Shown in pieces: positions 11,159-32,781 of a DNA stretch of 32,781 bases. The DNA is from Trueperaceae bacterium (GTDB lineage Bacteria; Deinococcota; Deinococci; Deinococcales; Trueperaceae). Position 1 is the first letter of the stretch. Every line of letters starts with the position of its first letter. Position numbers and translations under genes: made by a program. The stretch lies in assembly GCA_035703635.1 (NCBI GenBank), contig DASSXV010000012.1, forward strand, positions 1 to 32,781, in the 5' to 3' direction. The notes under the pieces were generated by a model. The model searched no databases. It had not been told where the DNA came from and saw only the letters and a list, made by a program, of their open reading frames with translations.

Positions 11159-12358
11159 ATGGCAGAGAACAAGCTGAGCGGCTTCGCAACTCGCGCGGTG
11201 CGCTCCGGGCAGCAGCACGACCCGGAGACCCTCGCGCACGCCACACCCATCTACCAGACGAGCACGTTCGTGCTTGGCAGCATGGCGCGCGGCGCTGACC
11301 TCTTCGCTGGCGCGGCTAGCGGCAACGTCTACTCGCGCATCGGCAACCCGACCGTCAGGGCCGTCGAGGAGAAGATCGCCGCCCTCGAGGGCACCGAGGA
11401 GGCCGTGGCTTTCGCGTCGGGCATGGGCGGCATCGCGGCCGTGTTCCTCAGCCTCCTGCGGCAGGGCGACGAGGTGCTGATCCTAGGACCGCTTTACGGC
11501 GGCACGCGGGGCCTGCTCGAAGACCTGCTGCCGCGCTTCGGGGTCACGGGGCGGGCCGTGAACGAGGCGGAACTCCCAGCGGCCGTGGGGCCGCGCACGC
11601 GCATGATCTACGTGGAGTCGCCAACCAACCCCGACCTGCGCATACATGACCTCGCCCTAGTTGGCAGGGTGGCGCGGGAGCACGGGATCATCAGCGTGGC
11701 AGACAACACCTTCGCAACGCCCTACCTCAGTAGGCCAAGCGAGTTCGGCATCAGCATCGTGCTGCACTCGGCCACCAAGTACTTGAGTGGTCACGGCGAC
11801 CTCCTGGCTGGCGTCGTCGCCGGCCCAGCCGACCTGCTGCACGAGGTCCGCATGGAGGGCCTGCGGCACCTTGGCGCCAGCCTCGACCCGCATGCTGCTT
11901 ACCTCCTCCTGCGCGGCGTGCGCACGCTCCACCTGCGCATGGAGGCGCACTGCGCCAACGCCAGCGCCGTAGCGCACGCGCTGCGCGGCCAGCCTGGCGT
12001 TGCCAAGGTCCACTACCCTGGCTTCCCCGAGCACGCAGGCCATGCATTGGCGGCCAGCCAGATGAGCGGCTTCGGCGGCATGGTGTCACTTGAACTCGAT
12101 GGCGGGCTGCCGGCAGCAGCAGCTTTCCTAGAAGCGCTGCGCCTCTTCGACCACGCAGTCTCGTTAGGCGACGTGGCGTCGCTCGCCTGCCACCCGGCGT
12201 CAACCACGCACCAGCTCCTCCCCCGCGAGATGTTGGAGGCCGAGGGCGTTACCGACGGGCTCGTGCGGTTGTCAGTCGGCATCGAGGCGGCGGATGACCT
12301 CGTGGCGGACGTGCTGCAGGCGGCCGCAGTGGCGGCGCGGGTGGCCGTGCCTGGCTAG
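11159..12358 (+). CDS. PLP-dependent trans-sulfuration enzyme (methionine gamma-lyase / cystathionine gamma-lyase family)
   Basis: PIYQTSTF, YSRIGNPT, ESPTNP, DNTFATP, HSATKYLSGHGD (PLP Lys), LVRLSVGIE; TAGACT -10 box 6 nt before the ATG. Confidence 0.9.
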   Translation: MAENKLSGFATRAVRSGQQHDPETLAHATPIYQTSTFVLGSMARGADLFAGAASGNVYSRIGNPTVRAVEEKIAALEGTEEAVAFASGMGGIAAVFLSLLRQGDEVLILGPLYGGTRGLLEDLLPRFGVTGRAVNEAELPAAVGPRTRMIYVESPTNPDLRIHDLALVGRVAREHGIISVADNTFATPYLSRPSEFGISIVLHSATKYLSGHGDLLAGVVAGPADLLHEVRMEGLRHLGASLDPHAAYLLLRGVRTLHLRMEAHCANASAVAHALRGQPGVAKVHYPGFPEHAGHALAASQMSGFGGMVSLELDGGLPAAAAFLEALRLFDHAVSLGDVASLACHPASTTHQLLPREMLEAEGVTDGLVRLSVGIEAADDLVADVLQAAAVAARVAVPG

Positions 12359-15300
12359 AGGCTGTACACCGCACCCTGTGGGTCGCGTGCGTACTTGGCC
12401 TCCGCCGCGCTCAGCGCCTCCTCCATCTTCCTAAGGAAAGCGCTCTCGAGTTCCGGGCGGTCCTCGATACGCGCCCAATGGCTGGCGCGCTCGTAAGCCG
12501 CCGCCGCCTCGGCGCTCCTACCGCTGTCCGTGAGGATGTCGCCCATGTTGGCTGCGCCAAGGCGCGCGCCGTACGCGTAACCGATGCGTTCGCTCAGCGA
12601 GACGCACTCGCGCGCCAAGTCAAGCGCCCCGCCTGGCGGCAAGAGCTCGCCTTTGGTTGCCACTTGGGCGAGGCTCGCCAACGTGAGGGCTAGGCCGCTG
12701 TAATGCTTGACTGCCGCGTAGTTGGCGCGCGCTTCCTGCAGCGCCGCGAACGCCTCCTCGTGCCGCTGCTTCGAGGCAAGCACGAGCGCCATGTTGCCGC
12801 GCGCCTGGGCCTCGCCCAGGTGATCGCCCAACTCCGCGCGCATGCTGGCGGACGCCGCAAAGTGCGCCAGGGCAGCGCTATCGCCGTCGTCTCCGCCCAC
12901 CGAGCCAGCCACGATGCCAGCGGTGTTCAACGCCAGTGCGTGCGTTTCGTTCGGCCCTAGAGCAGCGAGCAGCTCGAGCGCTTCCGCGACGCGCGCAGCG
13001 GCCGCCTTGTTCTCACCCCTTTGCCAGTGGAACAAACCAACTGACTCCCTCACCCAAGCGCGCAACTCGAGGTCGGCATGTTCAGAGATGGCCGCGTCTA
13101 CCGCGCGGAAGAGCTCGAGCCCTGGGCGCGCGCGGCCGCGCACGTCGAGGTAGCCGCGCATGAACTTCACGAGGTGCCAGAGCGCTGGCCCGTCGCCACT
13201 ACTTGCCAGCCAACGGAGCGCGACCTCTAGGTTGGCGCGTTCCGCGTCGGCCACCTTGAAGCCGTGCTCGCTGCGTTCGTGGACGGGCAGCTCGTTCAGT
13301 TGCCGCGCAAGGTCGGAGTACGCCCTCGCCACGCGGCCATTCGCGGCGGGCGCGTCGAGCAGGGCGTCACGGAAGCGCTCGGCGACGGACTCGTGGACGG
13401 TGTAGCGCTCACCTTCGCGCCTTAGCAGTGAGCGTTCGAGGAGCGCGAGGAGGAAGAACGGTGAGGCGCTGCTTGCCGCGCGCCCCTCCTCAGCCCTGAA
13501 CCCGCCGCGGATCAGGGCGAGGGTCCCGAGGGCTTCTTGCTCCTCGGCGCTCATGAGTTGCCGCGCGACCTCGATGAAGCGTGTGGTCAGGGGCTGCGAC
13601 CCTGGCACGGCCATCAGTGACTCGGGTTGGCGATCGAGTTGTTCGATCAGCTCATGCAGGGCGAGGATGCGCGTCCAGGCCGCGGCCAACTCCAACGCCA
13701 ACGGCTCGCGGCCGACGCGCGTGAGCACTTCGTCCAGCTCGTCGTCGTCGACGTCCTCGGCGGCGCCCACGCGCTGCATGCCTTGGCGGAAGAGTTCACG
13801 CGCCGCCTCCGCGCTTAGCTCCGGTACGACCAGCACGCGTTCGCGCTCCAAGCGTAGGGGCATGCGGGCCGTGACAAGCAGCCGCAGGCCAGGTGCTCGC
13901 CGCAACAGACCCGTAAGCACGCCAGCCTGCTCGGCACCGGCGTCGGCGTTGTCTAGCACTACCCGCACGCGCCTGGCTCCCAAGCGCTCGACTAAGGCGT
14001 CGACGTCGTCAACGCGGTCGAAGCCGAGGGCCTCGGCGACAAGACCGGGCAGGGAGGCGGCCGAACTCAGGTTGCGCAAGTCGACCCAGTAAGTGCCGTC
14101 GTCGGCTCCGCCATCTTGTGCGTGGGCTAGTTCGAGGGCGAGCTGGGCGGCCAAGCGCGACTTGCCTGTGCCGCCCGCTCCGACAAGGACAACGAGTTGG
14201 CGTTCGCGTACGACTGCGGCGGCCGCCTCAAGCCAGGCGCGGCGCCCAACGAGTGGCCGCTCCCAAGTCGGCAGCACTACGGGCGGCCGCGAGCGCTGTT
14301 CAAGGACCCCGGCGATGCTGCGCTTCACCGCGCCAACGTCCGCGCTCCAGGCGCCGCCTCTGCGCTTCAGCACGCCATCCTCCACGAGCTTCAGCGTCAG
14401 TCGTGAAGTGGGGCCTGGCAGTCCGCCGCCGCTGGCAGCGAGTTCCTCGGCGACCTCGCGCGCTAGCGGGCCTCCGAGCGCGGCGCTCAACCAGGCACCA
14501 ACCTGGGCAGGCGTCAATGGGTCGAGTACGACTTGCTGGTCGGCTGCGAACGCGCCGCCTGCGCCGTCCATCACGACCTCGACGACCTGCGTGCCGCCCT
14601 GTTGAAGGCGCTCGGCGAGGAGTTCAGCGCTGCCCGGGTCGAGGCGATCGCCGCCCGTCAGCAACACGACGAGGCCGTGGGCGTCCGCGTCGTTGCGGAG
14701 GAGGGTGCGCAAGTCGTGCTCGACGGGCTCACCCTCGACGTCGCCCGCGTAAACAGCCCCGAGCGCCCACAGGTGAAGGCCCCTACGAGTCTCCTGCGCC
14801 GTTAGCTGCCTGACGACGCGGCCAGCTTGACGGGCGCGCACCGCGACCTCCGCGAGGAAGCGCGTCACGCCCGCGCCGGGGGCGGCGTTGACGCGCAGCA
14901 CGTTCGCGCCAGCTGCCGCCAGGAACGCGGTGGCGGCGGCGAGGTGCGCGTCGCGCCCCTCCAACCTCACCTCCTGCAGGGTCTTGGAATGCTGCTGCTC
15001 GCTGCGGTCATGAGCCATGACGGCGCTGCGCCCACCGCGTTTGGCGAGGCGCACGCGTTCGTCTGCGCGCTCGAACAGGTCGCGGTCGTCGTCCTCGTCG
15101 GTGGCAGCCACGCCAACGCTGGCGCTGATCGACACCCACACCGCGCCCTCGACGGGGTTGGAGGTGACTTGGTCGTGCACCCGGCGCAAGATGGCCTCCG
15201 CCTCCGCGCGGTTCGTGTCAGGAAGCAGGACAACGAACTCATCGCCGCCGAAGCGGAAGAGCTGGTCGTTGCCGCGCAGGCCCTTGAGGGTGCGCTCGGC

Positions 15301-15495
15301 CACCGCGCGTAGGGCGGCGTCGCCCGTCGCGTGGCCGTAGACGTCGTTAAGTGACTTGAGGTGGTCTACGTCTATCACGGCGAGCGCGTAATGTTCAGCC
15401 GTTTCCTGGCGGTTCCGCGCCAGCGCCTCAAGTGCGGGCGCTAAGTGCGCCCTGGTGCGTGCCCCCGTCAGGTCGTCGAGCAGCCATGACTCCAT
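12355..15495 (-). CDS. diguanylate cyclase fused to tandem P-loop (STAND/NB-ARC-like) domains and TPR repeats
   Basis: N-terminal DDLTG...DVDHLKSLNDVYGHATGD...RFGGDEF; degenerate Walker A AAPGAGVT; second Walker A GAGGTGKS with Walker B VVLDNAD and PLALELAAA; C-terminal helical TPR-like repeats. Confidence 0.88.
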   Translation of the reverse strand: MESWLLDDLTGARTRAHLAPALEALARNRQETAEHYALAVIDVDHLKSLNDVYGHATGDAALRAVAERTLKGLRGNDQLFRFGGDEFVVLLPDTNRAEAEAILRRVHDQVTSNPVEGAVWVSISASVGVAATDEDDDRDLFERADERVRLAKRGGRSAVMAHDRSEQQHSKTLQEVRLEGRDAHLAAATAFLAAAGANVLRVNAAPGAGVTRFLAEVAVRARQAGRVVRQLTAQETRRGLHLWALGAVYAGDVEGEPVEHDLRTLLRNDADAHGLVVLLTGGDRLDPGSAELLAERLQQGGTQVVEVVMDGAGGAFAADQQVVLDPLTPAQVGAWLSAALGGPLAREVAEELAASGGGLPGPTSRLTLKLVEDGVLKRRGGAWSADVGAVKRSIAGVLEQRSRPPVVLPTWERPLVGRRAWLEAAAAVVRERQLVVLVGAGGTGKSRLAAQLALELAHAQDGGADDGTYWVDLRNLSSAASLPGLVAEALGFDRVDDVDALVERLGARRVRVVLDNADAGAEQAGVLTGLLRRAPGLRLLVTARMPLRLERERVLVVPELSAEAARELFRQGMQRVGAAEDVDDDELDEVLTRVGREPLALELAAAWTRILALHELIEQLDRQPESLMAVPGSQPLTTRFIEVARQLMSAEEQEALGTLALIRGGFRAEEGRAASSASPFFLLALLERSLLRREGERYTVHESVAERFRDALLDAPAANGRVARAYSDLARQLNELPVHERSEHGFKVADAERANLEVALRWLASSGDGPALWHLVKFMRGYLDVRGRARPGLELFRAVDAAISEHADLELRAWVRESVGLFHWQRGENKAAAARVAEALELLAALGPNETHALALNTAGIVAGSVGGDDGDSAALAHFAASASMRAELGDHLGEAQARGNMALVLASKQRHEEAFAALQEARANYAAVKHYSGLALTLASLAQVATKGELLPPGGALDLARECVSLSERIGYAYGARLGAANMGDILTDSGRSAEAAAAYERASHWARIEDRPELESAFLRKMEEALSAAEAKYARDPQGAVYSL

Positions 15496-15614
15496 CTAGG
15501 CCAGCTTACCTAGGCCCTCTTACACCGTTATAACGACCCCAACGGCGTTCGCCTCACCTACCGGCCGGTTGGCTCTTGGTGGGCGAGGCGAACGGGATGC
15601 GCTCCAGTCGCGCT

Positions 15615-15950
15615 TCAGACGTGCGACTGATCGTCGTCTTTGACGACGCGGTCGACCGTGATGGTGAGGTTGGCGACCATGGCGGCGATGGCGCCGACGG
15701 CAGCCCACACTGGCAGGAGCACCGTGCCGATCACGCCGAGGGTCAGGGGGATCTCGATGAGGGTCTTGCCGTCGTCGTTCTTGATCGCGATGCGGCGCAC
15801 GTTGCCCTCGCGCACGAGTTCCTTGACCTTGGAAACCACGGCCTCGCCCGAGAGCCTGAACTCCTCGGTGGTGGTGCGGCCGGACTTGGTGTGCGTACTG
15901 GAGTTACTGTTGTGCTGCTCGGCCCCTTGGTTGTTTTCGTTCGCGTCCAC
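15615..15950 (-). CDS. DUF4342 domain-containing protein
   Basis: KVKELVREGNVRRIAIK...LIEIPLTLGVIG...AAVGAIAA is characteristic of DUF4342; GTG 15950 follows an AAGGAGG RBS. Confidence 0.85.
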   Translation of the reverse strand: MDANENNQGAEQHNSNSSTHTKSGRTTTEEFRLSGEAVVSKVKELVREGNVRRIAIKNDDGKTLIEIPLTLGVIGTVLLPVWAAVGAIAAMVANLTITVDRVVKDDDQSHV

Positions 15951-16091
15951 GTTGGCCTCCTTGGCTATTAGGTTAGGCGCTGAGTGGGCGGCGGCACATC
16001 CGCCGTTAGGATGAGGTGGCAAGTGAGTAAGTTTCAAGGCGCCAAGCTAGGCAGGCGCTGGCCGCGGTTCGGGGTGACAGCGCTAAGCAGC

Positions 16092-16140
16092 TGTACACAT
16101 CGCCCCCTTTTTCGCCGCAAGTTCGGGGACGATGTATACA
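16092..16140. repeat. imperfect inverted repeat with TGT...ACA ends
   Basis: TGTACACATCGCCCC ... GGGGACGATGTATACA (one mismatch, one bulge) in an intergenic region. Confidence 0.6.
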
Positions 16141-16303
16141 ACCTTCGTTGCGGCACCGTGATTGGTTCGCTGGGCCACGGGGCTAGGTACGACAGCGCCG
16201 AAGCCGACTTCGTTTAGTGGCACCTCGCAACGGCGTGCCGGTTTTGTGCAAGTGCCTCTTGAGCAATCGCTTGATTTAGCTGGTCTTTACCGCAGGCTCC
16301 AGT

Positions 16304-16388
16304 TTCGGATTGTGAGGATTTGACCCTTCGGATTGTGAGGATCAAGCTTTTCGGATTGTTAGGATCCGATAGTTCGGATTGTGAGGTG
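16304..16388 (+). repeat. four direct repeats of TTCGGATTGTGAGGAT at an exact 23-bp period (probable operator array)
   Basis: Copies start at 16304, 16327, 16350 (one G>T change) and 16373 (last 2 nt differ), with unrelated 7-bp spacers. Confidence 0.92.
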
Positions 16389-16391
16389 AGA

Positions 16392-16400
16392 TGTTATGGT
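16392..16400 (+). promoter_or_regulatory. extended -10 (TGnTATGGT), leaderless promoter of the DUF4143 ATPase gene
   Basis: TG-T-TATGGT lies 6 nt before the in-frame GTG at 16407. Confidence 0.6.
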
Positions 16401-16406
16401 GCCGGA

Positions 16407-17702
16407 GTGGACGGCGCCAACGCACAGTACCCACGCGGGCTGACATCTGTACTAACCCAGCGCATGGCCGAGTACCCAACGGTCATCATCCAAGGCCCCA
16501 GGACCGTTGGAAAAACTACCCTTCTGCATAGTCTTGCGAGCAAAGCTGGCGTCCCAATATTCGACCTCGACAGCCCAGCTACCCGCGACCTAGTGACGGC
16601 GGACCCCGAATTCTTCGCCGCTGGCGCCCGGCCCGTGCTGGTAGACGAGTACCAGAAGGCCCCGATTATCCTTGACGCCATCAAGGCTGAACTAAACCGG
16701 TCCAGCCAGCCCGGGCAGTTCGCCCTCACCGGATCTACTAGCTTCTACGCGCTGCCTCAGGTGGCACAAGCACTGACCGGCAGGCTGCACATTCTGACTT
16801 TGTACCCTTTGGCGCAAGCGGAGCTTGAACGGACTGGCACCAACATCATCACTACTCTCTTCGAGGCCCCAGAAGACCTAAGGGCGGCGCCCACCTCGCC
16901 AACTTCGCGGGAGGATTACGCTCGGCGGCTAGTAAGGGGCGGGTTCCCGCTAGCCCTATCCGTGTCCTCGGCCGCGGCTCGCAACCGCTGGTTTGATGAT
17001 TACGTCAGCCTCACTCTTGAGCGCGACGCAATCGAACTCCGGCAGATCGCCCGGACCGACCGCCTAACCCGCCTCCTCCACCGCTTGGCGGCGCAAACCG
17101 CCCAGGTACTGAACATCGCTAACGCCGCAGAAGCCGTTGGGCTCGATAAGAACACCGCCGGGGAGTATCTAAAGGTACTCGAGGCCCTTTTTCTGCTTTA
17201 CCGCCTGCCTGCCTGGGGAAAAACGCTGACTTCCAGGTCAACTAAGAGCCCAAAACTGCACGTTCTCGACTCTGGAGTTGCTGCGCGTCTATTGCTACTC
17301 TCCGAAGCGAAACTAGCTGCGCGCGATCCCTCCGCCGTCACCGAGTTCGGGCACCTCCTAGAAACCTTCGTGGTAGGCGAGCTTTTCAGGCACTCCGCTT
17401 GGCTCGACGAGCCCTTGACGCTGGGTCACTGGCGCACCCACGACAACGCTGAGGTCGATGTAGTTATCGAACGCGACGACGGCCGGGTGGCCGGGATAGA
17501 GGTGAAGGCCACTGGGCGCATCACCGATGCGTCGTTCAGGTCGTTGAGGGAGTTCCGCAACGCCTTGCCTGGACGTTTCGCAACCGGCGTGATTCTATAC
17601 CTCGGCCAGCACGCCATCCGCACAGCCGACGGGCTCTATGCGGCGCCGGTGGATTCGTTGTGGCGGCTGGGCGGCCAGCGGCACACGAGCACCTCTACCT
17701 GA
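16407..17702 (+). CDS. AAA_14 ATPase with DUF4143 / PD-(D/E)xK-like C-terminus
   Basis: Walker A GPRTVGKT, Walker B VLVDEYQ, LTGS, LVRGGFP, KLHVLDSG, GHLLETFV, EVDVV...GIEVK. Start moved to GTG 16407 because the longer ORF merely translates the repeat array. Confidence 0.9.
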   Translation: MDGANAQYPRGLTSVLTQRMAEYPTVIIQGPRTVGKTTLLHSLASKAGVPIFDLDSPATRDLVTADPEFFAAGARPVLVDEYQKAPIILDAIKAELNRSSQPGQFALTGSTSFYALPQVAQALTGRLHILTLYPLAQAELERTGTNIITTLFEAPEDLRAAPTSPTSREDYARRLVRGGFPLALSVSSAAARNRWFDDYVSLTLERDAIELRQIARTDRLTRLLHRLAAQTAQVLNIANAAEAVGLDKNTAGEYLKVLEALFLLYRLPAWGKTLTSRSTKSPKLHVLDSGVAARLLLLSEAKLAARDPSAVTEFGHLLETFVVGELFRHSAWLDEPLTLGHWRTHDNAEVDVVIERDDGRVAGIEVKATGRITDASFRSLREFRNALPGRFATGVILYLGQHAIRTADGLYAAPVDSLWRLGGQRHTSTST

Positions 17703-17721
17703 GCCCCGGAACCGATGACAT

Positions 17722-18054
17722 ATGCTGGCCGACAACATCGCCGAGTGCCGGGCAAACCTTCTCGACATCTTCGCTGAATACTTGGCGCTGAAGCCGTCCG
17801 ACGACGCCTACCGAGCAGCGATCCACGTGCTGCAAGTGAATCTGGTGCACGGCGACGCGCTAACCTTGCGCAGTAACGACGACCGCGCAATTACGTTTGC
17901 GGAGTGGGGTTACCTCGGCAAGGGCAGGTTCCAACGCCGCGATTTCCGCTACGACAACCTGACGCAAATGTCGGCGCTTGCGGCAGAAGGCTCGCTCTTT
18001 GCCGGCGTGCCCAAGCAGGAGATCTTCAGGCCTATCAAGGCGTGTCCGCCAGTG
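17722..18054 (+). pseudogene. C-terminal remnant of a restriction-modification DNA methyltransferase-like subunit
   Basis: DNIAECRANLL...NLVHGDAL...ITFAEWGYLGKGRFQRRDF resembles the C-terminal half of N6-methylase subunits; no N-terminal SAM-binding part is present. Assigned from recalled family similarity, not a search. Confidence 0.6.
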
Positions 18055-21162: not shown

Positions 21163-22359
21163 CTAGCCTGCCGAGACCCTGCGCCCCGCCCGCGCAGCGA
21201 AGTCGTCTAGAACGCCTGTGACTTCGTTGGCGACCCACATGCGCGAGCGCGCCTTGCCAGTGAACTCGCGAAGGATGCTCGCCTCCTCGAGTTGGCCAAG
21301 CGCCCTAAGCGCAGCTACGGCCGACACGCCGAAGTTCCGCTCGACGAATGCCGAGTTGACCACCGGTTGACTCGGTAAGGCGTCGAGTAACCGCCAGGCA
21401 ACGGAGTCCCTCCGCGCCACTAGTCGTTCGGTCCAGTTAGCGCGTATGGTCACGAGCTCGCCCAGCAACCACCTTCCGTTGCTCGTGGCGGCAAAGACGG
21501 CATCGCTGAGGGCGAAGACGATCGCGTCGAGGTCTCCGCGGCGGTAGGCGTCTAACGCCGCGAAGTAACCACGCGTATCCGTCAGGAGGCCGGCGGACAC
21601 GGGCACCGTTACTGACCTGACCAAACCGCGGCCTTTCAGCAGCGCGTGGAGGAGTGCTCTGCCCGTTCGGCCGTTACCGTCAGGGAACGGGTGAATCGTC
21701 TCGAACTGAGCGTGCGCAACGGCGGCCTGGACGATGACGGGCAGGTCGTCTCGCGCCATGAACGCCACCAGGTCGCTCATCGCATCTGCAACGCGGTCTG
21801 GGTGCGGCGGCACGAAATCGGCCATGTGCGGTCCGGCTCCGTGCCCACCGATCCAGACCTGCGCGCTCCGCCACGCTCGTACTGCTAGGTCTCCTAGCAG
21901 AGCCTCTTGCACCGCGATCATGGCTGCTGCGTCAAGCGTCTCAGACAGCGCCGAGGCCGCCTCCATGGCGTGCACGTTGGCGGCTATCAAGCCTGCGTTC
22001 TTCGTTGCGCTCTCACCCAACGTTGCGACGGCTACTTGGCGCGCGCCTGACGTCAAGTTCTCGATCTGCGACGACGAAGCCGACTCGCTGCGCAACAAGA
22101 CAGCGGTTAACGGGGCGAGTTCCTTGATAGCGGACTGCTCAGCGTCGAACCGCGCCAACTCCTCTGCCGATTCAGCAGCTGCGAGGCGCGCTTCCTTCGA
22201 TGGCACGGGCTCTAGTCCTGCGATCCGTGGCACGACTGCCGCTTGGTACGGACCGCTGTGCCTGCGTCTTGCCGCTCGACTCTGACCGTACTGCAGCAGG
22301 CCGACGTCCCACTTCCGCTCTTCATACGCAACTTGCGGCCAAGCCGGAAGGTTCGCCAC
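21163..22359 (-). CDS. Fic family protein (class II-like) with C-terminal wHTH-like region
   Basis: Intact HPFPDGNGRTGR motif; N-terminal inhibitory motif SSQIEN; extended -10 TGnTAAGCT 6 nt before the GTG. Confidence 0.92.
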   Translation of the reverse strand: MANLPAWPQVAYEERKWDVGLLQYGQSRAARRRHSGPYQAAVVPRIAGLEPVPSKEARLAAAESAEELARFDAEQSAIKELAPLTAVLLRSESASSSQIENLTSGARQVAVATLGESATKNAGLIAANVHAMEAASALSETLDAAAMIAVQEALLGDLAVRAWRSAQVWIGGHGAGPHMADFVPPHPDRVADAMSDLVAFMARDDLPVIVQAAVAHAQFETIHPFPDGNGRTGRALLHALLKGRGLVRSVTVPVSAGLLTDTRGYFAALDAYRRGDLDAIVFALSDAVFAATSNGRWLLGELVTIRANWTERLVARRDSVAWRLLDALPSQPVVNSAFVERNFGVSAVAALRALGQLEEASILREFTGKARSRMWVANEVTGVLDDFAARAGRRVSAG

Positions 22360-22429: not shown

Positions 22430-24823
22430 CTAACGCTCCCCGACGTACACAGCCAGGTGCTGCCCTGTAAGCGTCGCGTGCTCAGCGACGAGGTCAGCAG
22501 GCGTGCCCTCGAACACCACGCGCCCGCCCTCGTGCCCCGCACCGGGACCGAGGTCGATGATCCAGTCAGCGTGCGCCATCACGGCCTGGTGGTGCTCGAT
22601 GACGATCACCGATTTGCCTGCATCGACGAGGCGGTCGAGTAGTCCGAGGAGTTGCTCGACGTCCGCGAGGTGCAGGCCCGTCGTTGGCTCGTCGAGGACG
22701 TACACGCCGCCCTTCTCGCCCAAGTGAGTGGCTAGCTTGAGGCGCTGACGCTCGCCGCCAGACAAGGTCGTCAGGGGCTGGCCGAGGCTGAGGTAACCGA
22801 GGCCGACGTCGGCAAGGCGCTGCAGGATGGCGTGCGCGGCCGGGAGGCGCGCCTCGCCCGCGCCGAAGAAGGTCTCGGCCTCCGCAACCGGCATAGCGAG
22901 GACCTCGCTGATGTCGCGGCCGCCGAAGTGGTACTCGAGCACCGCGGCCTGGAAGCGCTTGCCGCCGCACTCCTCACAAGTAGTGGCGACGCTGGCCATG
23001 ATGCCCAGGTCGGTGTAGACCACGCCAGCGCCGTTGCACACGGGGCAGGCGCCCTCGGAGTTGGGGCTGAACAGCCCAGGCTTGACGCCGTTGGCCTTGG
23101 CGAACGCCTTGCGGATGGGGTCGAGCAACCCGGTGTAGGTGGCTGGGTTACTCCGCCGCGAGCCCTTGATGGCGCCCTGATCGATAGCGACCACGCCGGG
23201 CAGGCCAGCAACGGAGCCGTGGATGAGCGAACTCTTGCCCGAGCCAGCGACGCCCGTCACGACGACGAGCACGCCTAGCGGGATGTCCACGTCGACGTTC
23301 TGCAAGTTATGGGTGTTAGCGCCGCGCACCTCAAGGGCGCCCTTGGCCTTGCGCACCTTAGGCTTGAGCGCCGCGCGATCGTCTAAGTGCCTGCCAGTCA
23401 GGGTGCCGCTGGTGCGCAGGCCAGCCACCGAACCGGAGAACACGACCTCTCCACCTGCCGTACCCGCGCCCGGGCCAAGGTCAACGACGTGGTCTGCCAC
23501 TTCGATGACCTCCGGCTTATGCTCGACGACCAGCACCGTGTTGCCCTTGTCGCGGAGGCGCAGCAGGAGCTCGTTCATGCGCTCGATGTCGTGGGGGTGC
23601 AGCCCGATGGTCGGCTCGTCGAACACGTACGTGATGTCGGTAAGCGCAGAGCCGAGGTGACGGATCATCTTGGTGCGCTGCGCCTCGCCGCCAGACAGGG
23701 TGCCCGCCGGACGGTCTAGGGAGAGGTAACCGAGTCCGATCTCGACGAACGAGTCGAGCGTGTCGCGCAACGTGTCAAGCAGCGGCTCCAAACCCGGCTC
23801 CTGAATGGTGCGCACCCAGTCGGCCAAGTCGCTAATCTGCATGGCGCAGGCGTCCGCGATGCTCTTGCCCGCGATCTTCGACGAGCGCGCGCCCTCGTTG
23901 AGACGCGTTCCGCCGCACTCTGGGCAGGTCTGGAACGTGATGACGCGCTCGACGAACGCCCTGATGTGCGGCTGCATGGCTTCAGGGTCCTTGTTGAGCA
24001 TCGTCTTCTGGAGCTTGGGTATCAGCCCCTCGTACGTCAAGTTGATGCCCTCGACCTTGATCTTGGTGGGCTCCTTGTAAAGCAGGTCGTTGAGCTCGCG
24101 CTTGTTGAACTTGCCGAGCGGCTTGTCCATGTCGAAGTAGCCAGAGCCAGCGAAGATGCGCCCGTACCAGCCGTCCATGCTGTAACCGGGCACGTTGAGA
24201 GCGCCTTGGCTCAGCGACTTGTCGGCATCGAACAGGGTCGCCAGGTCGAAGTCAGTGACCGTGCCCCTGCCCTCACAGCGGGGGCACATGCCGCCAGTTA
24301 TCGAGAAGCTCCTCGCCTCCGTCACCTGTGAGCCCGCGCGTTCGACGGTCACCGCGCCCTTGCCGCTAACGGAAGCGACGTTGAAGGAGAACGCCTGCGG
24401 CGAGCCGATGTGCGGCTGCCCGAGGCGGCTGAAGAGGATGCGCAAGACGGCGTTAGCGTCTGTGGCCGTGCCCACGGTGGAGCGCACGTTCGCGCCCATC
24501 GGCTCCTGGTCGACGATGATGGCCGTCGTGAGGCCCTCGAGCACGTCGACGTCCGGCCGCGCCAAGTTCGGCATGAAGCCCTGCACGAACGCGCTGTAGG
24601 TCTCGTTGATCATGCGTTGCGACTCGGCGGCGATGGTGTCGAACACGAGCGAGCTCTTGCCCGACCCTGACACGCCCGTGAAGACCGTCAAGCGCCGCTT
24701 CGGCAGCTCGAGCGATACGTTCTTGAGGTTGTTCTCGCGCGCACCCTGAACGCGAATGACATCGTGGCCGTCCGCCGCGTGGCGAGCTAGCTGTTCGGCG
24801 ACCGGTTGTTCTCTCGTGCTCAT
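22430..24823 (-). CDS. uvrA: UvrA-family ATPase, short class II (UvrA2/DrrC-like) paralogue
   Basis: GARENNLKN, two Walker A motifs ([18 protein letters not shown]), LSGGEAQR and LSGGERQR, CxxC zinc motifs. At 797 aa it is shorter than canonical UvrA. Confidence 0.9.
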
Positions 24824-29463: not shown

Positions 29464-31917
29464 TCAGGCGCTCTCCCGGTAGTCGTCGCGTAGGCGCCTG
29501 ACGCGCGCTCTTGCCACCGTCAGGCGCGGGTCGCCAGGCAGCAGCGCGGCGGCGGCCGCCTCCCAGCACTCGAGGTCGTCGGTCAAGCGTTCGGCTAGGT
29601 CGAAGAGCGCGTCGCCGTCGCCCGCCCCGAGCGCCGCCTGGCGCAGCAACTCCTCGAGGTCGAGGCGTTCACCTACCACCCCTGGCGCCTCGCTGCGCGG
29701 CAGCAGCGCGCTGCGGTAGAGCGCCACGGCCTGCCGCACCTCGCCCTTGGCGAGGTGGGCGCGCAGGTCGAGCACGTCGGACGAGAAGGGAACGAGGAAG
29801 CGGTACGGCGCATCGCTAATGGGCAGGGTCTTGCGTAGGCGGGTGAGCATGGCGCGCATGCCGCTCTTGGTGAAGGGCGTCTGGCCGTCGGGCACCAGGT
29901 AGTCGTTGAGCTCCTCGAGGTCGATGCCGTCGACGTTGTGCACGAGCGCAGTCGTCACTTCCGCCATGCGCTGAGGCAGCGGTTGGCTCTTGCCGTTGTA
30001 GCGCGCTGCCGGGGTTCCGAGCAGGCTAAGGCGGAGGTTGGCCTGCGGCACAGCCACGCGGTTCCATACGGGCGCGAGGAGCTCCTCCGGCCCGCTGACG
30101 ATGCGCAGCGCGATCGGCGCCGCCCCAGCCACGAGCGCAACGGCGTCGGGCGGTAGGTTCACCGCCGCGCCTTCGCTTGCGTACAGGTAGTAGAGGATGG
30201 CGCTGAGTCGATGCTCGGCGGCCAACTCTCGGTCCAAAGCCGCGGTTAGTAGGTCCGGGGCGGCGTCCTCGTCCCCCGCCACCGCGGCGACCATGCCGCG
30301 CGTGAGTTGGGCGACGGTCCACTCGTAACCGCGGGCGGCCTCCGCGAGCCCAACGACGTCCTCCGCTACCCGTCGCGCCTCGCCGACCCTGCCGAGCTCG
30401 AGCAGCACCCGCGCGAGGAGGTGACCGTGCACCGCCCGCGAGCGCCGCGGGCTCGCCTGGTAGTTGGCGAGGGCCAGCTCAAGCGCGGCCTCCGGTTGGC
30501 CCTCCGCTAGGTCGAGGAACGCGAGCGTGCCCCTCAATAAGGCCGCTAGTTGCGGGAGGTTGCCCTCCGCAATCACTTGCGCGTTCTCCAGCACGCCACG
30601 CGTGCCGACGAGGTCGCCGGTCATGATGTTGGCCATGGCGAGGTCGTTGACGAGCTGGAGCCGCCTTGCGCCGTCCCGCACGTCGCCGCGATCGAAGACG
30701 TCGAGGGTCCAGCGCGCCCAGCCTGCGGCTTGAGCGTAGTCGCCCATGCGTGAGAGGCGCGCTACGAGCATGCCCGCGTTGCGCACTAGGTCGAACGGCC
30801 CACCTATGTCGTCTGCCAGCTGCACTGACTCTCGCAGCAGTTGAAGGGCTTGATCTGGGTCTGGGTGCAGCCTGCCGTACTGCCAGAGGGTGAGGGGTGT
30901 GCGGCGCGCCTCGACGGCTTGTTTGGCTAGCGCGAAACCGCGTTCAGGTGGCAACGCTCCAGCGCGCCGCGCCCTGAGTTCGGGGGCGAGGTGCACGGTG
31001 AGGTGATAGTCGACGTCTGGCAAGACCGTTGCCACGTCACCGACGGCGAAACCCGCCACGAGGCGCCACTCGAGCACGCGTTCGCTTACCGAATACTCTG
31101 CCGGCAGGGCCGAGAGGATGAGGTGGAGGCGGGCTAGGAGCCCTTCTTCCTGATAGCGCGGCCCGGCTTGCTTGAGCAGGTCCTCTACGAGTTCCGGCGC
31201 CTTGAGGCTGGCGAGCTCGAGCGCGGCAACTAGCTCACCCTCACGCCTGAGGGCCTGGACGGCAACGGAAGCGTCGACGAGTTGCGCTTCTTGGTAATCG
31301 ACGAGGGCGCCGTCTGGGCTCGGGATGGTGATGGCGGGGATACCCGCCAGGCGGCTGCCACGCTGCAACAGCTCGGTGAAGCGCCCGCCTACCGCGTGCC
31401 ATAGCTCGTCTATTTGCGGGGTGGTGACCGCGCGCGGCAGGAGGAGTTCCGCCTCGTCGAGCGGCACGCGCAGCTCGTCCGGGCCTAACAAGGTGGACCC
31501 TGCCGTGACCGCGGCGGGGGGCGTTAGGCCCCCGCGCAGGTCGAGCAGCACGCGGAAACCGTCGTGCTGCATGGCGAGTACGGCCGGGAGCAGCGGCTCG
31601 TTCACGAGTTCCGTTGTCAGAGCAAGCCACAGCGGGCGCACGTCTGCGCCGTAATGGCTCAGTGCAGCTAGCTGGGCTTGGTAAGGGAGCGCCGAACCGA
31701 GCAGGCGCGTGCCGATGGCGTCATTGACGGCGCGCGCGAGGGCGTTGCCTTGCGCCACGGCGTCCCCAGCTGCCCCGCGCCCGACCTCGAACCAGGCCAC
31801 GGTGGCCTTGTCCTTGAGTCCTTCTAGGAGGAACGGGGCACCGTACGGCTCACCGCCCGTGAGGACCACGGGTCTGCTCGCCCCCGTGATGGCGGTGAGT
31901 TGGCGTTGGAGCCACAT
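29464..31917 (-). CDS. large transcriptional regulator: degenerate MalT/STAND-like N-terminus, TPR-like helical region, C-terminal SARP-type wHTH + BTAD
   Basis: N-terminal VVLTGGEPYGAP..VAWFEV (decayed P-loop); Ala/Leu helical repeats; C-terminal LRLSLLGTP...LTRLRKTL...SDVLDL...AVALYRSALLP..E; TATCCT lies 6 nt before the ATG. Confidence 0.78.
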   Translation of the reverse strand: MWLQRQLTAITGASRPVVLTGGEPYGAPFLLEGLKDKATVAWFEVGRGAAGDAVAQGNALARAVNDAIGTRLLGSALPYQAQLAALSHYGADVRPLWLALTTELVNEPLLPAVLAMQHDGFRVLLDLRGGLTPPAAVTAGSTLLGPDELRVPLDEAELLLPRAVTTPQIDELWHAVGGRFTELLQRGSRLAGIPAITIPSPDGALVDYQEAQLVDASVAVQALRREGELVAALELASLKAPELVEDLLKQAGPRYQEEGLLARLHLILSALPAEYSVSERVLEWRLVAGFAVGDVATVLPDVDYHLTVHLAPELRARRAGALPPERGFALAKQAVEARRTPLTLWQYGRLHPDPDQALQLLRESVQLADDIGGPFDLVRNAGMLVARLSRMGDYAQAAGWARWTLDVFDRGDVRDGARRLQLVNDLAMANIMTGDLVGTRGVLENAQVIAEGNLPQLAALLRGTLAFLDLAEGQPEAALELALANYQASPRRSRAVHGHLLARVLLELGRVGEARRVAEDVVGLAEAARGYEWTVAQLTRGMVAAVAGDEDAAPDLLTAALDRELAAEHRLSAILYYLYASEGAAVNLPPDAVALVAGAAPIALRIVSGPEELLAPVWNRVAVPQANLRLSLLGTPAARYNGKSQPLPQRMAEVTTALVHNVDGIDLEELNDYLVPDGQTPFTKSGMRAMLTRLRKTLPISDAPYRFLVPFSSDVLDLRAHLAKGEVRQAVALYRSALLPRSEAPGVVGERLDLEELLRQAALGAGDGDALFDLAERLTDDLECWEAAAAALLPGDPRLTVARARVRRLRDDYRESA

Positions 31918-32018
31918 CGTCTCAGGATAGCCGCCGCGTTAGCTGGCGGCTGCGGTGTTACGGGATTCATGTTGAGAGCAAGTGGTCTTTTGTCGGCAGT
32001 GCCTGCCCCTGGTGGTTG

Positions 32019-32213
32019 TCAGGCGCTCCGCAACTGGTGGCCGTACGCGGCCACGGCAGCGCGGTCGCTTGGGGCGTTGGTGGCGTACGTGAGTTGGCGT
32101 TCGATCTCGGCGGCCGCTTGCAGAACGCGTGCCTGACGCAGCAGGACTTTGTCTCCTACGAACGTGAACGTCGTGGTTGCCTGCAGCTTACGGAGCGCTT
32201 CTTCTCTGTCCAT
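32019..32213 (-). CDS. small hypothetical protein (64 aa)
   Basis: ATG 32213 follows a GAAGAGGGTG RBS-like tract and a TACCCT -10 box with upstream heptamer repeats; no recognisable family. Confidence 0.6.
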   Translation of the reverse strand: MDREEALRKLQATTTFTFVGDKVLLRQARVLQAAAEIERQLTYATNAPSDRAAVAAYGHQLRSA

Positions 32214-32245
32214 GGTCGAACTCACCCTCTTCCGATGTGAGAGTA

Positions 32246-32279
32246 AGGGTAGGCGCTAATGCGCTTCAGTGTCGCTTCA
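32246..32279 (-). promoter_or_regulatory. leftward activator-type promoter TGAAGCG-acac-TGAAGCG-N10-TACCCT
   Basis: Heptamers at 32279-32273 and 32268-32262 (11-bp period); -10 box at 32251-32246. Confidence 0.75.
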
Positions 32280-32297
32280 GATGAGATGCGCAGGCGG

Positions 32298-32331
32298 TGA
32301 AGCGCCTTTGAAGCGGGTCGCGGATTACCTT
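32298..32331 (+). promoter_or_regulatory. rightward activator-type promoter TGAAGCG-cctt-TGAAGCG-N10-TACCTT
   Basis: Heptamers at 32298-32304 and 32309-32315 (11-bp period); -10 box at 32326-32331. Confidence 0.75.
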
Positions 32332-32364
32332 CTGGTCACTACGCCACGGAGGTACTCCCCCATC

Positions 32365-32511
32365 ATGCGCAACCTCAAGAACATCTTCACCGCCCTGATC
32401 GTCACCCTCGCCGTATCCGGTCTCGCCGTTGGCAGCGTCGCCGCCTACAGCCCTGCCAATGCCGTCTTCGCTGGCACAAGCAACCTTCCAGGCGAGTGGG
32501 ACGTCGGCTAA
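32365..32511 (+). CDS. 48-aa secreted peptide precursor (candidate signalling peptide)
   Basis: MRNLKNIFTALIVTLAVSGLAVGSVAA-YSPANAVFAGTSNLPGEWDVG has a basic n-region, hydrophobic h-region and VAA cleavage site; GGAGG at 32348-32352; GC-ending codon bias. Confidence 0.8.
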   Translation: MRNLKNIFTALIVTLAVSGLAVGSVAAYSPANAVFAGTSNLPGEWDVG

Positions 32512-32614
32512 GTCACCCCGCGGAGTCTTGGGCTGGCGGTTCAACTTGCCGCAGCTCAGCGCGCCCATGGCCTAGGCCCAACTAAGCCCTGAACTAAAGA
32601 GCCACTTCCCCCGA

Positions 32615-32781
32615 ATGCCCTCACCATTAGAAGACCTGACATTCATGTTTCAGCCCATCGCCAGCCTGGCGAGTGAGCGAGACGACTGGTCAGAAGCGTT
32701 AGTTCGCTGGCAGATGCCAGACGGCACCGTTCGCGGTCCGCTCGATATCTTGCCGCGCTGGTTGGCTCCAGCACGGATCGA
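32615..32781 (+). CDS. EAL domain protein (5' part; runs off the window)
   Basis: Manual translation: MPSPLEDLTFMFQPIASLASERDDWSEALVRWQMPDGTVRGPLDILPRWLAPARI. FQPI...EALVRW..PDG is the EAL domain N-terminal signature. Not in the supplied ORF track. Confidence 0.8.
   Translation, partial: MPSPLEDLTFMFQPIASLASERDDWSEALVRWQMPDGTVRGPLDILPRWLAPARI

Follow-up and report, generated by a model that had tools for sequence, protein, structure and literature searches.

What is the task of two divergent promoters that share one geometry to the nucleotide, and which protein reads them? The question is raised by one end of a 32,781-nucleotide stretch of DNA from a Trueperaceae bacterium of the phylum Deinococcota (contig DASSXV010000012.1 of assembly GCA_035703635.1). 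The whole stretch, called the window here, is a complete contig (C76) of the 2,895,446-base assembly. Between positions 32246 and 32331 lie two promoter-like elements that point away from each other, each made of two heptamers (heptads) and a -10-like hexamer. One of them faces the gene of an 817-amino-acid (aa) regulator, and the other faces the gene of a 48-aa peptide precursor followed by a gene for an EAL-domain protein. The evidence described below points to the heptads as the sites of the adjacent regulator, which appears to be of the SARP type, and to the locus as a peptide-sensing autoregulatory switch that would control an EAL-type phosphodiesterase of cyclic di-GMP (c-di-GMP) in Trueperaceae. 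The probability of this reading is put at roughly 0.7.

Anatomy of the divergent promoters

On the plus strand, the peptide-side site consists of TGAAGCG-cctt-TGAAGCG (32298..32315; heptads at 32298-32304 and 32309-32315). A 10-nt spacer (ggtcgcggat) separates its proximal heptad from the -10-like hexamer TACCTT (32326..32331). On the minus strand, the regulator-side site consists of TGAAGCG-acac-TGAAGCG (32262..32279; heptads at 32279-32273 and 32268-32262), and another 10-nt spacer (cattagcgcc) leads to the hexamer TACCCT (32246..32251). In other words, TGAAGCG-N4-TGAAGCG-N10-TACCTT on the plus strand (32298-32331) is mirrored by TGAAGCG-N4-TGAAGCG-N10-TACCCT on the minus strand (32279-32246). 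A first-pass annotation of this DNA, made from the letters alone, had described mirror-image promoters with four perfect heptads and equal spacings, and the sequence matches that description to the base.

The two heptads of each site are direct repeats with an 11-bp period, and the sites overlap the core promoter and its -35 region. A scan requiring a -35 box found no sigma-70 promoter in 31900-32781, and the peptide-side promoter is without a -35-like hexamer. No terminator-like site or hairpin was found in the same interval, including the stretch between the peptide gene and the EAL gene. Heptameric direct repeats that follow each other at 11 bp over the -35 region are, in their sequence anatomy, what a SARP target looks like. 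Excerpts from two papers (PMC10936776, PMC10972967) describe SARP targets as direct repeats at 11 or 22 bp that cover the -35 and are bound by a side-by-side dimer. In the Streptomyces SARPs covered by the excerpt of PMC10936776, the 3' repeat lies 8 bp from the -10, whereas the distance at both promoters here is 10 nt. The first-pass annotation had pointed to this difference of 10 versus 8, and it holds in the window, with 9 to 11 nt in a few relatives.

Rarity of the heptad pair

Could such a pattern arise by chance? In the window, the 18-nt heptad-pair pattern with up to two mismatches has three matches, against 0.48 expected from 100 shuffles. Two of the 100 shuffles also reach three matches, though both sites at this locus are perfect. 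The first-pass annotation had proposed a scan of the whole genome as a check. A scan for the heptad pair with up to one mismatch gave five matches, and the sole perfect pairs were the two at this locus. A reversed control pattern had no match in the whole genome with up to one mismatch. Simple arithmetic from the base composition (~66% G+C) gives about 0.02 perfect pairs expected per genome. One of the one-mismatch copies (TGAAGCGcgacTGGAGCG) lies at 15600-15617 on the minus strand, over the stop codon of a small open reading frame (ORF) upstream of a GGDEF-STAND gene. It has no TAnnnT at the right distance, and was judged to be a chance match. The remaining one-mismatch matches are on contigs C39 and C86.

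Across 18 genomes of the genus, the exact pattern YGAAGCG-N4-TGAAGCG has 29 matches in 14 genomes. Twenty-six of them are at this locus and 3 are elsewhere (a pair on G010:C111 was counted as belonging to the locus because it is identical to the window pair). Its reversed control has no match across the 18 genomes. The observation is real and is not a product of chance. The first-pass annotation had also proposed that the site defines the regulon of the regulator. This stands only in a trivial sense, because the scans place the motif essentially at this locus alone. Judging from exact and one-mismatch scans, the pair of divergent operons appears to make up the regulon, to which weaker sites may add.

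Conservation of the sites

At E <= 0.001, a search for regulator orthologs succeeded in 17/17 of the other genus genomes. The one in G017 is only a weak partial match (E 8.9e-10) that drops out at E <= 1e-40, leaving 16/17. The orthologous locus could be read in 14 cases within the genus, with regulators 52-100% identical; four further loci were left out, three cut by contig ends (L007, L022, L025) and one masked with N (L018). Both sites are present in 14/14 of the readable loci. On the peptide side, all 14 carry a perfect TGAAGCG-N4-TGAAGCG-N10-TA[ACG]C[TG]T. On the regulator side, the pair usually reads CGAAGCG-N4-TGAAGCG (the YGAAGCG form with 0-2 mismatches), then TAnnnT after 10 nt; this gap is 9 nt in L010-L013. 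The spacers differ freely from locus to locus. It had been argued earlier that the differing spacers in the window reflect a selected pattern and not a recent duplication, and the conservation of the sites amid divergent spacers bears this out.

Further evidence comes from the family as a whole. Regulator homologs (E <= 1e-40) occur in 97/128 family genomes, a tally that includes one unpublished genome (G107). Among 40 further family loci, 21 have the 7-N4-7-N10-TAnnnT layout on the peptide side. Fourteen of these carry perfect TGAAGCG heptads, 2 carry perfect TGGAGCG heptads and 1 is mixed (L043); the rest are L049 with three TGAAGCG units, L058 with TTTCAGY, L059 with TTRCAGA and L061 with xTCAAC. 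Three of the 40 regions are ambiguous (L060, L062, L065). In L023, which belongs to another genus and has a regulator 37% identical, the site reads TTCAACG-ggaa-TTCAACG-N10-TAAGCT. The arrangement is kept, with divergent spacers, down to 46% regulator identity and is found in an altered form at 37%. In L024 (G020:C1), where the regulator is 39% identical, neither a peptide gene nor paired heptads were seen upstream. A tandem array of three 12-bp units (ATTTGCAGTGAA in two of them, ATTTACAGTGAA in one) lies there instead and may be a different type of site in a sister subfamily.

The distance between the two sites also follows a rule. In the genus loci L006-L021, the gap between the inner heptads is 17, 18, 27, 28 or 29 bp and never lies between these classes. 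In the family loci L041-L080 that have both sites, it is 16-19 or 27 bp. Other values occur only where the regulator-side site is doubtful (24 bp in L049, 40 bp in L050 and 35 bp in L051). The two gap classes are about one helical turn apart. A bimodal gap of this kind suggests a constraint on helical phase and one oligomer that spans both sites.

Co-variation of the heptads and the recognition helix

Which protein binds the heptads? The first-pass annotation had assigned them to the neighbouring regulator, and this prediction gains from the comparison of sites with proteins, since the sites occur only once in the genome, are kept among relatives and change along with the helix of that regulator which aligns with the SARP recognition helix. 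In L045, all four half-sites read TGGAGCG, and L023, L058 and L059 have other heptads in the same geometry (TTCAACG, TTTCAGY and TTRCAGA, respectively). The recognition helix that accompanies TGAAGCG or TGGAGCG reads G[MVLI]R.[ML].TR.R in 16 sequences. Loci with TTCAACG-type heptads (L023, L061/L086, L065/L095) have TLRSHVSHLR, and those with TT[TR]CAG heptads (L084, L085) have TLYAHI[KR]RLR. This comparison leaves out 4/16 newly fetched sequences, and its heptad and helix classes are lineages, not independent events. Four half-sites and the reading head of the adjacent protein change together, as is predicted for a cognate protein-DNA pair.

The regulator and the 64-aa ORF

What kind of protein is the regulator? 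Its gene (P0001; 29464..31917, minus strand) encodes a STAND-like module in residues 1 to ~210, a TPR/helical-repeat sensor in ~215-620 and a SARP-type winged helix with a BTAD domain in ~625-817. Pfam gives weak TPR matches only. Many homologs of the regulator carry the precomputed label PF27103.1. AlphaFold, applied to the last 210 aa (29467..30096, minus strand) with 19 relatives, gave a model with a predicted local distance difference test score (pLDDT) of 92.3. The model consists of a three-stranded sheet, a winged helix-turn-helix (HTH) and a helical bundle; in other words, an OmpR-type winged helix is followed by a BTAD bundle, which is the order of the SARP fold. When this model was compared with the PDB by Foldseek, all four matches at E <= 0.001 were to the SARP domain of AfsR or to EmbR (AfsR 8hvr_I with E 1.4e-5 and TMq 0.61, 8k60_J, 8k60_I and EmbR 2ff4_B), with TMq up to 0.62 among them. 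Further EmbR chains (2ff4/2fez) fell below the cut at E 1.6e-3 and 2.7e-3. The earlier claim of a SARP/OmpR-type winged HTH in the C-terminal ~190 aa agrees with these matches to AfsR and EmbR, with the Pfam models Trans_reg_C and BTAD remaining silent.

A model of residues 1-625 has a pLDDT of 91.7. Foldseek ranks 6mfv_A first for it (E 4.3e-7, TMq 0.49, 677 columns), a STAND protein whose sensor is built of TPRs, and many TPR proteins follow. A NOD fold followed by a repeat sensor is the build of STAND proteins of the MalT type. The P-loop position reads TGGEPYGAP and departs from the canonical Walker A motif GxxxxGK[ST]: the Walker A lysine is missing throughout 18 aligned relatives, in all of which G26 and P28 are kept.

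Between the regulator-side promoter and the regulator there is always a small ORF. In the window it encodes 64 aa (MDREEALRKLQATTTFTFVGDKVLLRQ...; 32019..32213, minus strand) and is the first gene of the regulator-side operon. Its N-terminal ~45 aa (M.REEALR.L..T..F.FVG..V.LR) are conserved in the orthologous loci, the distant L023 included. Pfam and NCBIfam gave no match to it, and an Atlas search returned nothing usable. Its product may act together with the regulator or modulate its activity.

The peptide precursor and the EAL gene

The peptide side begins with an ORF of 48 aa (MRNLKNIFTALIVTLAVSGLAVGSVAAYSPANAVFAGTSNLPGEWDVG; 32365..32511, plus strand), preceded by a GGAGG Shine-Dalgarno sequence at 32348-32352. 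Judged by eye, the basic N-terminus, the hydrophobic core and an A-x-A motif make up a putative Sec signal peptide. After ...ANA, the sequence continues with VFAGTSNLPGEWDVG up to the stop codon, ending in ..PGEWDVG (..SNLPGEWDVG). A small ORF, likewise with an N-terminus resembling a signal peptide, is found in every readable orthologous locus, 22-37 nt after the -10 box. In these loci, a core resembling A[GQD]TSN[LQ]PGE[WY]DVG stands immediately before the stop codon. The relatives have 1-4 tandem copies of the core, with 2-4 in L012, L015, L019 and L020, and the ends are always D-x-G. Endings across the family include ..GEIDVG, ..GDWDAG, ..GDYDPG, ..SNLDVG, ..DDVDPG and ..VIPDVG, the last of these in 4 copies. 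In L016, L017 and L018, runs of N interrupt the repeated stretch of the peptide gene, and copy numbers are unreadable there.

The next gene on the plus strand encodes a stand-alone EAL domain. It starts 103 nt after the 48-aa ORF, and its 5' part (32615..32781) runs up to the contig end. The cut fragment of 55 aa matches the Pfam EAL family with E 6.9e-4 and 19.5 bits. A full ortholog of 287 aa in the complete genome G003 scores E 3.9e-20 and 72.7 bits against a gathering cut-off of 31.3, which places it in the family. The first-pass annotation mentions neither the secreted peptide nor the EAL gene nor the STAND/TPR sensor, and these alter the view of what the system does. An EAL gene lies downstream of the peptide gene in 15/19 loci examined. 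The RNA fold of the spacer between the peptide gene and the EAL gene was no better than that of shuffles (z 0.55). At the G003 locus (L037, G003:C1:203000-220000), the EAL gene is followed by a Metallophos gene and an AAA_27/AAA_23 gene that form an SbcCD-like pair and then by lipid or sugar genes. Nothing in these surroundings speaks for dedicated export or for modification of the peptide.

Modelled binding of the peptide by the sensor

A complex was modelled from residues 1-625 of the regulator (alignment of 18) and the 48-aa precursor (alignment of 7). The scores were 0.64, 0.64 and 0.67 in three runs, against 0.00 for the highest of 3 controls. The mark used for such scores is reached by 116/157 solved complexes and by 2/215 mismatched pairs. 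At least 42% of the contacts are shared between the runs. Confident contacts involve peptide residues 39-43 and 45-48, which are the conserved core. On the regulator, they involve TPR residues 286-390, 460, 496, 531 and 564-566. The groove residues R317, R318, W345, Q346, R349 and R379 are identical in 14/14 orthologs, and R387 is identical in 13/14. In the model, the basic pocket of the groove would suit an acidic C-terminal peptide with its invariant Asp and free carboxylate. The model supports, but does not show, binding of the peptide C-terminus in the TPR groove.

Proposed mechanism

How would the locus work? The data show its anatomy, conservation and uniqueness in the genome, the folds, and the joint change of heptad and recognition helix; DNA binding, activation as the sign of regulation, the transcription starts, the export, processing, uptake and binding of the peptide, and EAL activity are inferred. 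Each heptad pair would be occupied by two adjacent SARP domains, both on the same helical face. With the proximal heptad 10 bp before TAnnnT, the bound protein would take the place of the missing -35 and, in the manner of AfsR at the afs box, recruit RNA polymerase, and transcription would start near 32338 on the plus strand and near 32239 on the minus strand. The left promoter would drive the 64-aa protein and the regulator, which would amount to autoregulation. The right promoter would drive the Sec-type peptide precursor and the EAL phosphodiesterase, most likely as one operon. Because the helical phase between the pairs is fixed and an oligomer is expected of a STAND protein, one oligomer could occupy all four heptads and fire both promoters.

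What would the regulator sense? In the STAND family, ligands are sensed by the repeat domain. The STAND-like/TPR part would be the sensor here, and its most likely ligand is the C-terminal peptide (..SNLPGEWDVG), presumed to be exported, trimmed and re-imported. Occupancy of the TPR groove by this peptide would close an autoinduction loop whose output is c-di-GMP turnover, provided that the EAL protein is an active phosphodiesterase. In its fullest form, the proposal is one of peptide-pheromone quorum sensing outside Bacillota: a STAND/TPR-SARP receptor would respond to a D-x-G peptide, a single oligomer on four heptads would switch on its own gene and the EAL gene, cell density would be coupled to c-di-GMP, and the heptads, recognition helices and peptide cores of each lineage would amount to orthogonal 'dialects'. 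This extended version is tentative and is given somewhat less than an even chance.

Alternative explanations

Several other explanations have to be weighed against this mechanism. A mirror arrangement that is functionless, whether a chance event or an inverted repeat left by a recent duplication, has the symmetry itself to recommend it and nothing more. It is close to negligible in view of the tiny expected count, the empty reversed control and the comparative data, which contradict it with an arrangement that is conserved and then altered at distance while its spacers diverge. It is very improbable, too, that another factor binds the heptads, such as the 64-aa product or a response regulator of the OmpR/PhoB type from another locus, and that the 817-aa protein has a different target. 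OmpR-family proteins do bind direct repeats at about one helical turn, and the 64-aa ORF is linked to the sites as tightly as the regulator is. The 64-aa ORF, however, has no recognisable DNA-binding family, the heptad changes together with the recognition helix of this regulator, and the motif occurs essentially only beside it in 14/18 genus genomes. The regulator may also bind the heptads with the opposite effect. It would then be a repressor on both -35 regions that is released by the peptide or another ligand or, like AimR, a protein that is active without peptide and switched off by it, which would make the loop one of negative feedback. The sites overlap the core promoter, peptide binding in RRNPP systems may activate or inactivate the receptor, and the sequence does not decide the sign. 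Against this, there is no -35-like hexamer for activator-independent transcription, direct repeats with an 11-bp period abutting the -10 are the geometry of a SARP activator, and the BTAD activation module is retained. Repression or peptide-induced shut-off is regarded as rather unlikely, and activation by the peptide, that is, autoinduction, is considered more likely than inactivation.

Is the peptide a signal at all? It could instead be a secreted product, bacteriocin-like, RiPP-like (like a ribosomally synthesised and post-translationally modified peptide) or part of the envelope, that is controlled by the regulator while the TPR region senses another ligand. RiPP precursors can likewise contain tandem cores, the locus was linked to no exporter, Opp-type importer or processing protease, and the complex result is a prediction. 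This explanation is considered unlikely, though it carries some weight. No modifying enzyme stands beside the peptide gene, and the gene that usually follows encodes the EAL protein. The conserved core is at the extreme C-terminus, as in the propeptides Phr, PapR and AimP, and the modelled interface is exactly this core. Tandem duplication is also described for Phr (PMC11343458).

Evidence that weighs against the proposed switch

A number of observations count against a peptide-sensing SARP-type switch. The domain assignment is one area. A profile of 19 relatives searched against PDB sequences found AfsR weakly (E 0.008) and then OmpR/PhoB domains, and the Pfam models Trans_reg_C and BTAD gave no match to the last 198 aa or to the whole protein even at E <= 10. 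Because the Pfam models are silent, the SARP assignment rests on the fold and the weak profile match. With a P-loop that lacks its lysine, nucleotide switching of the STAND type may be inoperative. The distance of 10 nt to the -10, compared with 8 bp, may mean that the contact register differs or that the polymerase is contacted slightly differently. The complex model is another area. The peptide partner has a pLDDT of 37-40 in the complex, and its own fold is uncertain. The interface is conserved at 0.82, compared with 0.75 for the rest of the TPR region, a difference that is not significant (permutation p 0.11). The complex was also run on the alignments of this analysis, and the PDB contains TPR-peptide complexes, whose resemblance to this one may account for the pass.

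The phylogenetic coupling also has a limit. Sixteen of the 40 further family loci, with regulators <=40% identical, have neither the repeats nor a peptide gene under the filters used. The genome itself encodes an 816-aa paralog (G000:C14:6875-9130, minus strand, locus L040; 30% identity) whose upstream region is without heptad pair or peptide gene. These cases indicate that the coupling holds for one orthologous group and not for the whole protein family. The paralog shares the C-terminal domain by alignment. Its neighbour is a 455-aa ORF that resembles an NhaA-type antiporter by eye; no family search was made with it.

Is the promoter region reflected in RNA? The contigs differ between runs and weigh neither for nor against starts near 32338 and 32239. 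The available evidence consists of Logan contigs of RNA-library runs, which give no starts, strands or levels and may include carried-over DNA. Run X15 has no contig over 32222-32357, and its flanking contigs stop at 32221 and 32358, running into adapter letters. Run X19 has contigs that stop at 32242 and resume at 32281. Runs X17 and X18, which belong with the adverse observations, have single contigs that bridge the whole intergenic region. By the labels of the runs, members of the Trueperaceae are common in metagenomes of sludge, soil and sediment.

Relation to known systems

How does the locus compare with known regulators? At its promoter it resembles the targets of AfsR and other large SARPs (8HVR, 8K60), with two direct repeats of an 11-bp period over the -35 region of a promoter whose -35 is poor or absent. 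The proteins also share their parts, namely an OmpR-type winged helix with BTAD, a STAND module and TPR repeats. The order of these parts is different, being NOD-TPR-SARP here and SARP-NOD-TPR in the large SARPs. The Walker A lysine is missing here, the gap to the -10 is 10 nt instead of 8 bp, and Pfam SARP models do not respond. An excerpt of a review (PMC10972967) states that SARPs are exclusive to actinobacteria and describes only N-terminal SARP domains. The domain here occupies residues ~625-817 of 817 and belongs to a host in Deinococcota (Trueperaceae), and the target is the regulator's own locus and not a biosynthetic cluster.

In its logic, the locus is closer to the RRNPP(A) systems, especially PlcR-PapR. 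A cytoplasmic TPR transcription factor is encoded beside a gene for a propeptide of ~48 aa with a signal peptide, the extreme C-terminus of the propeptide is conserved, autoregulation is apparent, and the tandem units recall the pheromone units of some Phr propeptides. The layout is thus of the RRNPP type, a TPR receptor gene beside a small precursor with a conserved C-terminal core and predicted secretion. Excerpts describe, as the hallmark of RRNPP systems in Bacillota and mobile elements, a TPR transcription factor whose neighbouring gene encodes a signal peptide and, at the C-terminal end, the mature peptide (PMC10075063), and tandemly duplicated pheromone units in some Phr propeptides (PMC11343458). 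Homology tells a different story. No RRNPP receptor was found among the listed Foldseek matches or in Pfam, and the top fold is STAND-TPR. The effector is a C-terminal SARP domain, unlike the N-terminal XRE-type HTH. The regulator is set apart in these respects from Rap, Rgg, NprR, PlcR and PrgX, which have an N-terminal HTH or Rap-type effector and come from Bacillota. The host is a member of Deinococcota, and the peptides end in D-x-G.

In its build, the regulator is most like the STAND activators of the MalT type and PH0952 (6MFV), which have the same order of nucleotide-binding module, helical-repeat sensor and C-terminal DNA-binding effector. It departs from them in its SARP-type effector, which is LuxR-type HTH in MalT-type proteins, in its degenerate P-loop and in the proposed ligand, a genetically encoded peptide. 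In other words, the system is SARP-like at the promoter, RRNPP-like in logic and MalT-like in its STAND build, and it misses defining features of each family. A literature search on peptide quorum sensing in Truepera, on SARP/BTAD in Deinococcota and on c-di-GMP in Trueperaceae, with most subscription journals outside its range, found no description of such a system.

Other features of the contig

Other regions of the contig were recorded as well. A minus-strand gene at 12355-15495 encodes a 1046-aa protein with an N-terminal GGDEF domain, a NACHT/STAND NTPase and TPR, which makes it a second STAND-TPR signalling protein linked to c-di-GMP on this contig. A 797-aa UvrA-like ABC ATPase (22430-24823, minus strand) has partial matches to the UvrA DNA-binding domain and zinc-finger-like matches. 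Its gene adjoins one for a Fic/DOC protein with a C-terminal HTH (21163-22359, minus strand). The stretch 16001-18000 has a G+C content of 0.60, compared with ~0.66-0.69 elsewhere, around a DUF4143/AAA_14 ATPase gene (16320-17702) and a family-less 182-aa ORF, and it may be acquired DNA.

What the switch would mean for Trueperaceae

If the proposed mechanism is true, cell-to-cell peptide signalling of this form would be new to Trueperaceae and to Deinococcota, and the locus would represent a new peptide quorum-sensing family beyond Bacillota. Signalling by an encoded peptide through a cytoplasmic TPR receptor, regarded as typical of Bacillota, would then exist in Deinococcota. Likewise, the SARP-type 'sigma adaptation' at promoters without a -35 would reach beyond actinobacteria and would work from the C-terminus of a MalT-like sensor. 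The natural specificity variants (TGAAGCG, TGGAGCG, TTCAACG, TTTCAGY and TTRCAGA, with their matching helices) would lend themselves to testing how DNA is read by SARP domains and are possibly parts for synthetic circuits. The switch would be compact and apparently orthogonal, comprising one regulator, two promoters, one peptide and sites that are unique in the genome. For the bacterium, the EAL output would tie this switch to c-di-GMP and probably to the change between attached and free-living life.

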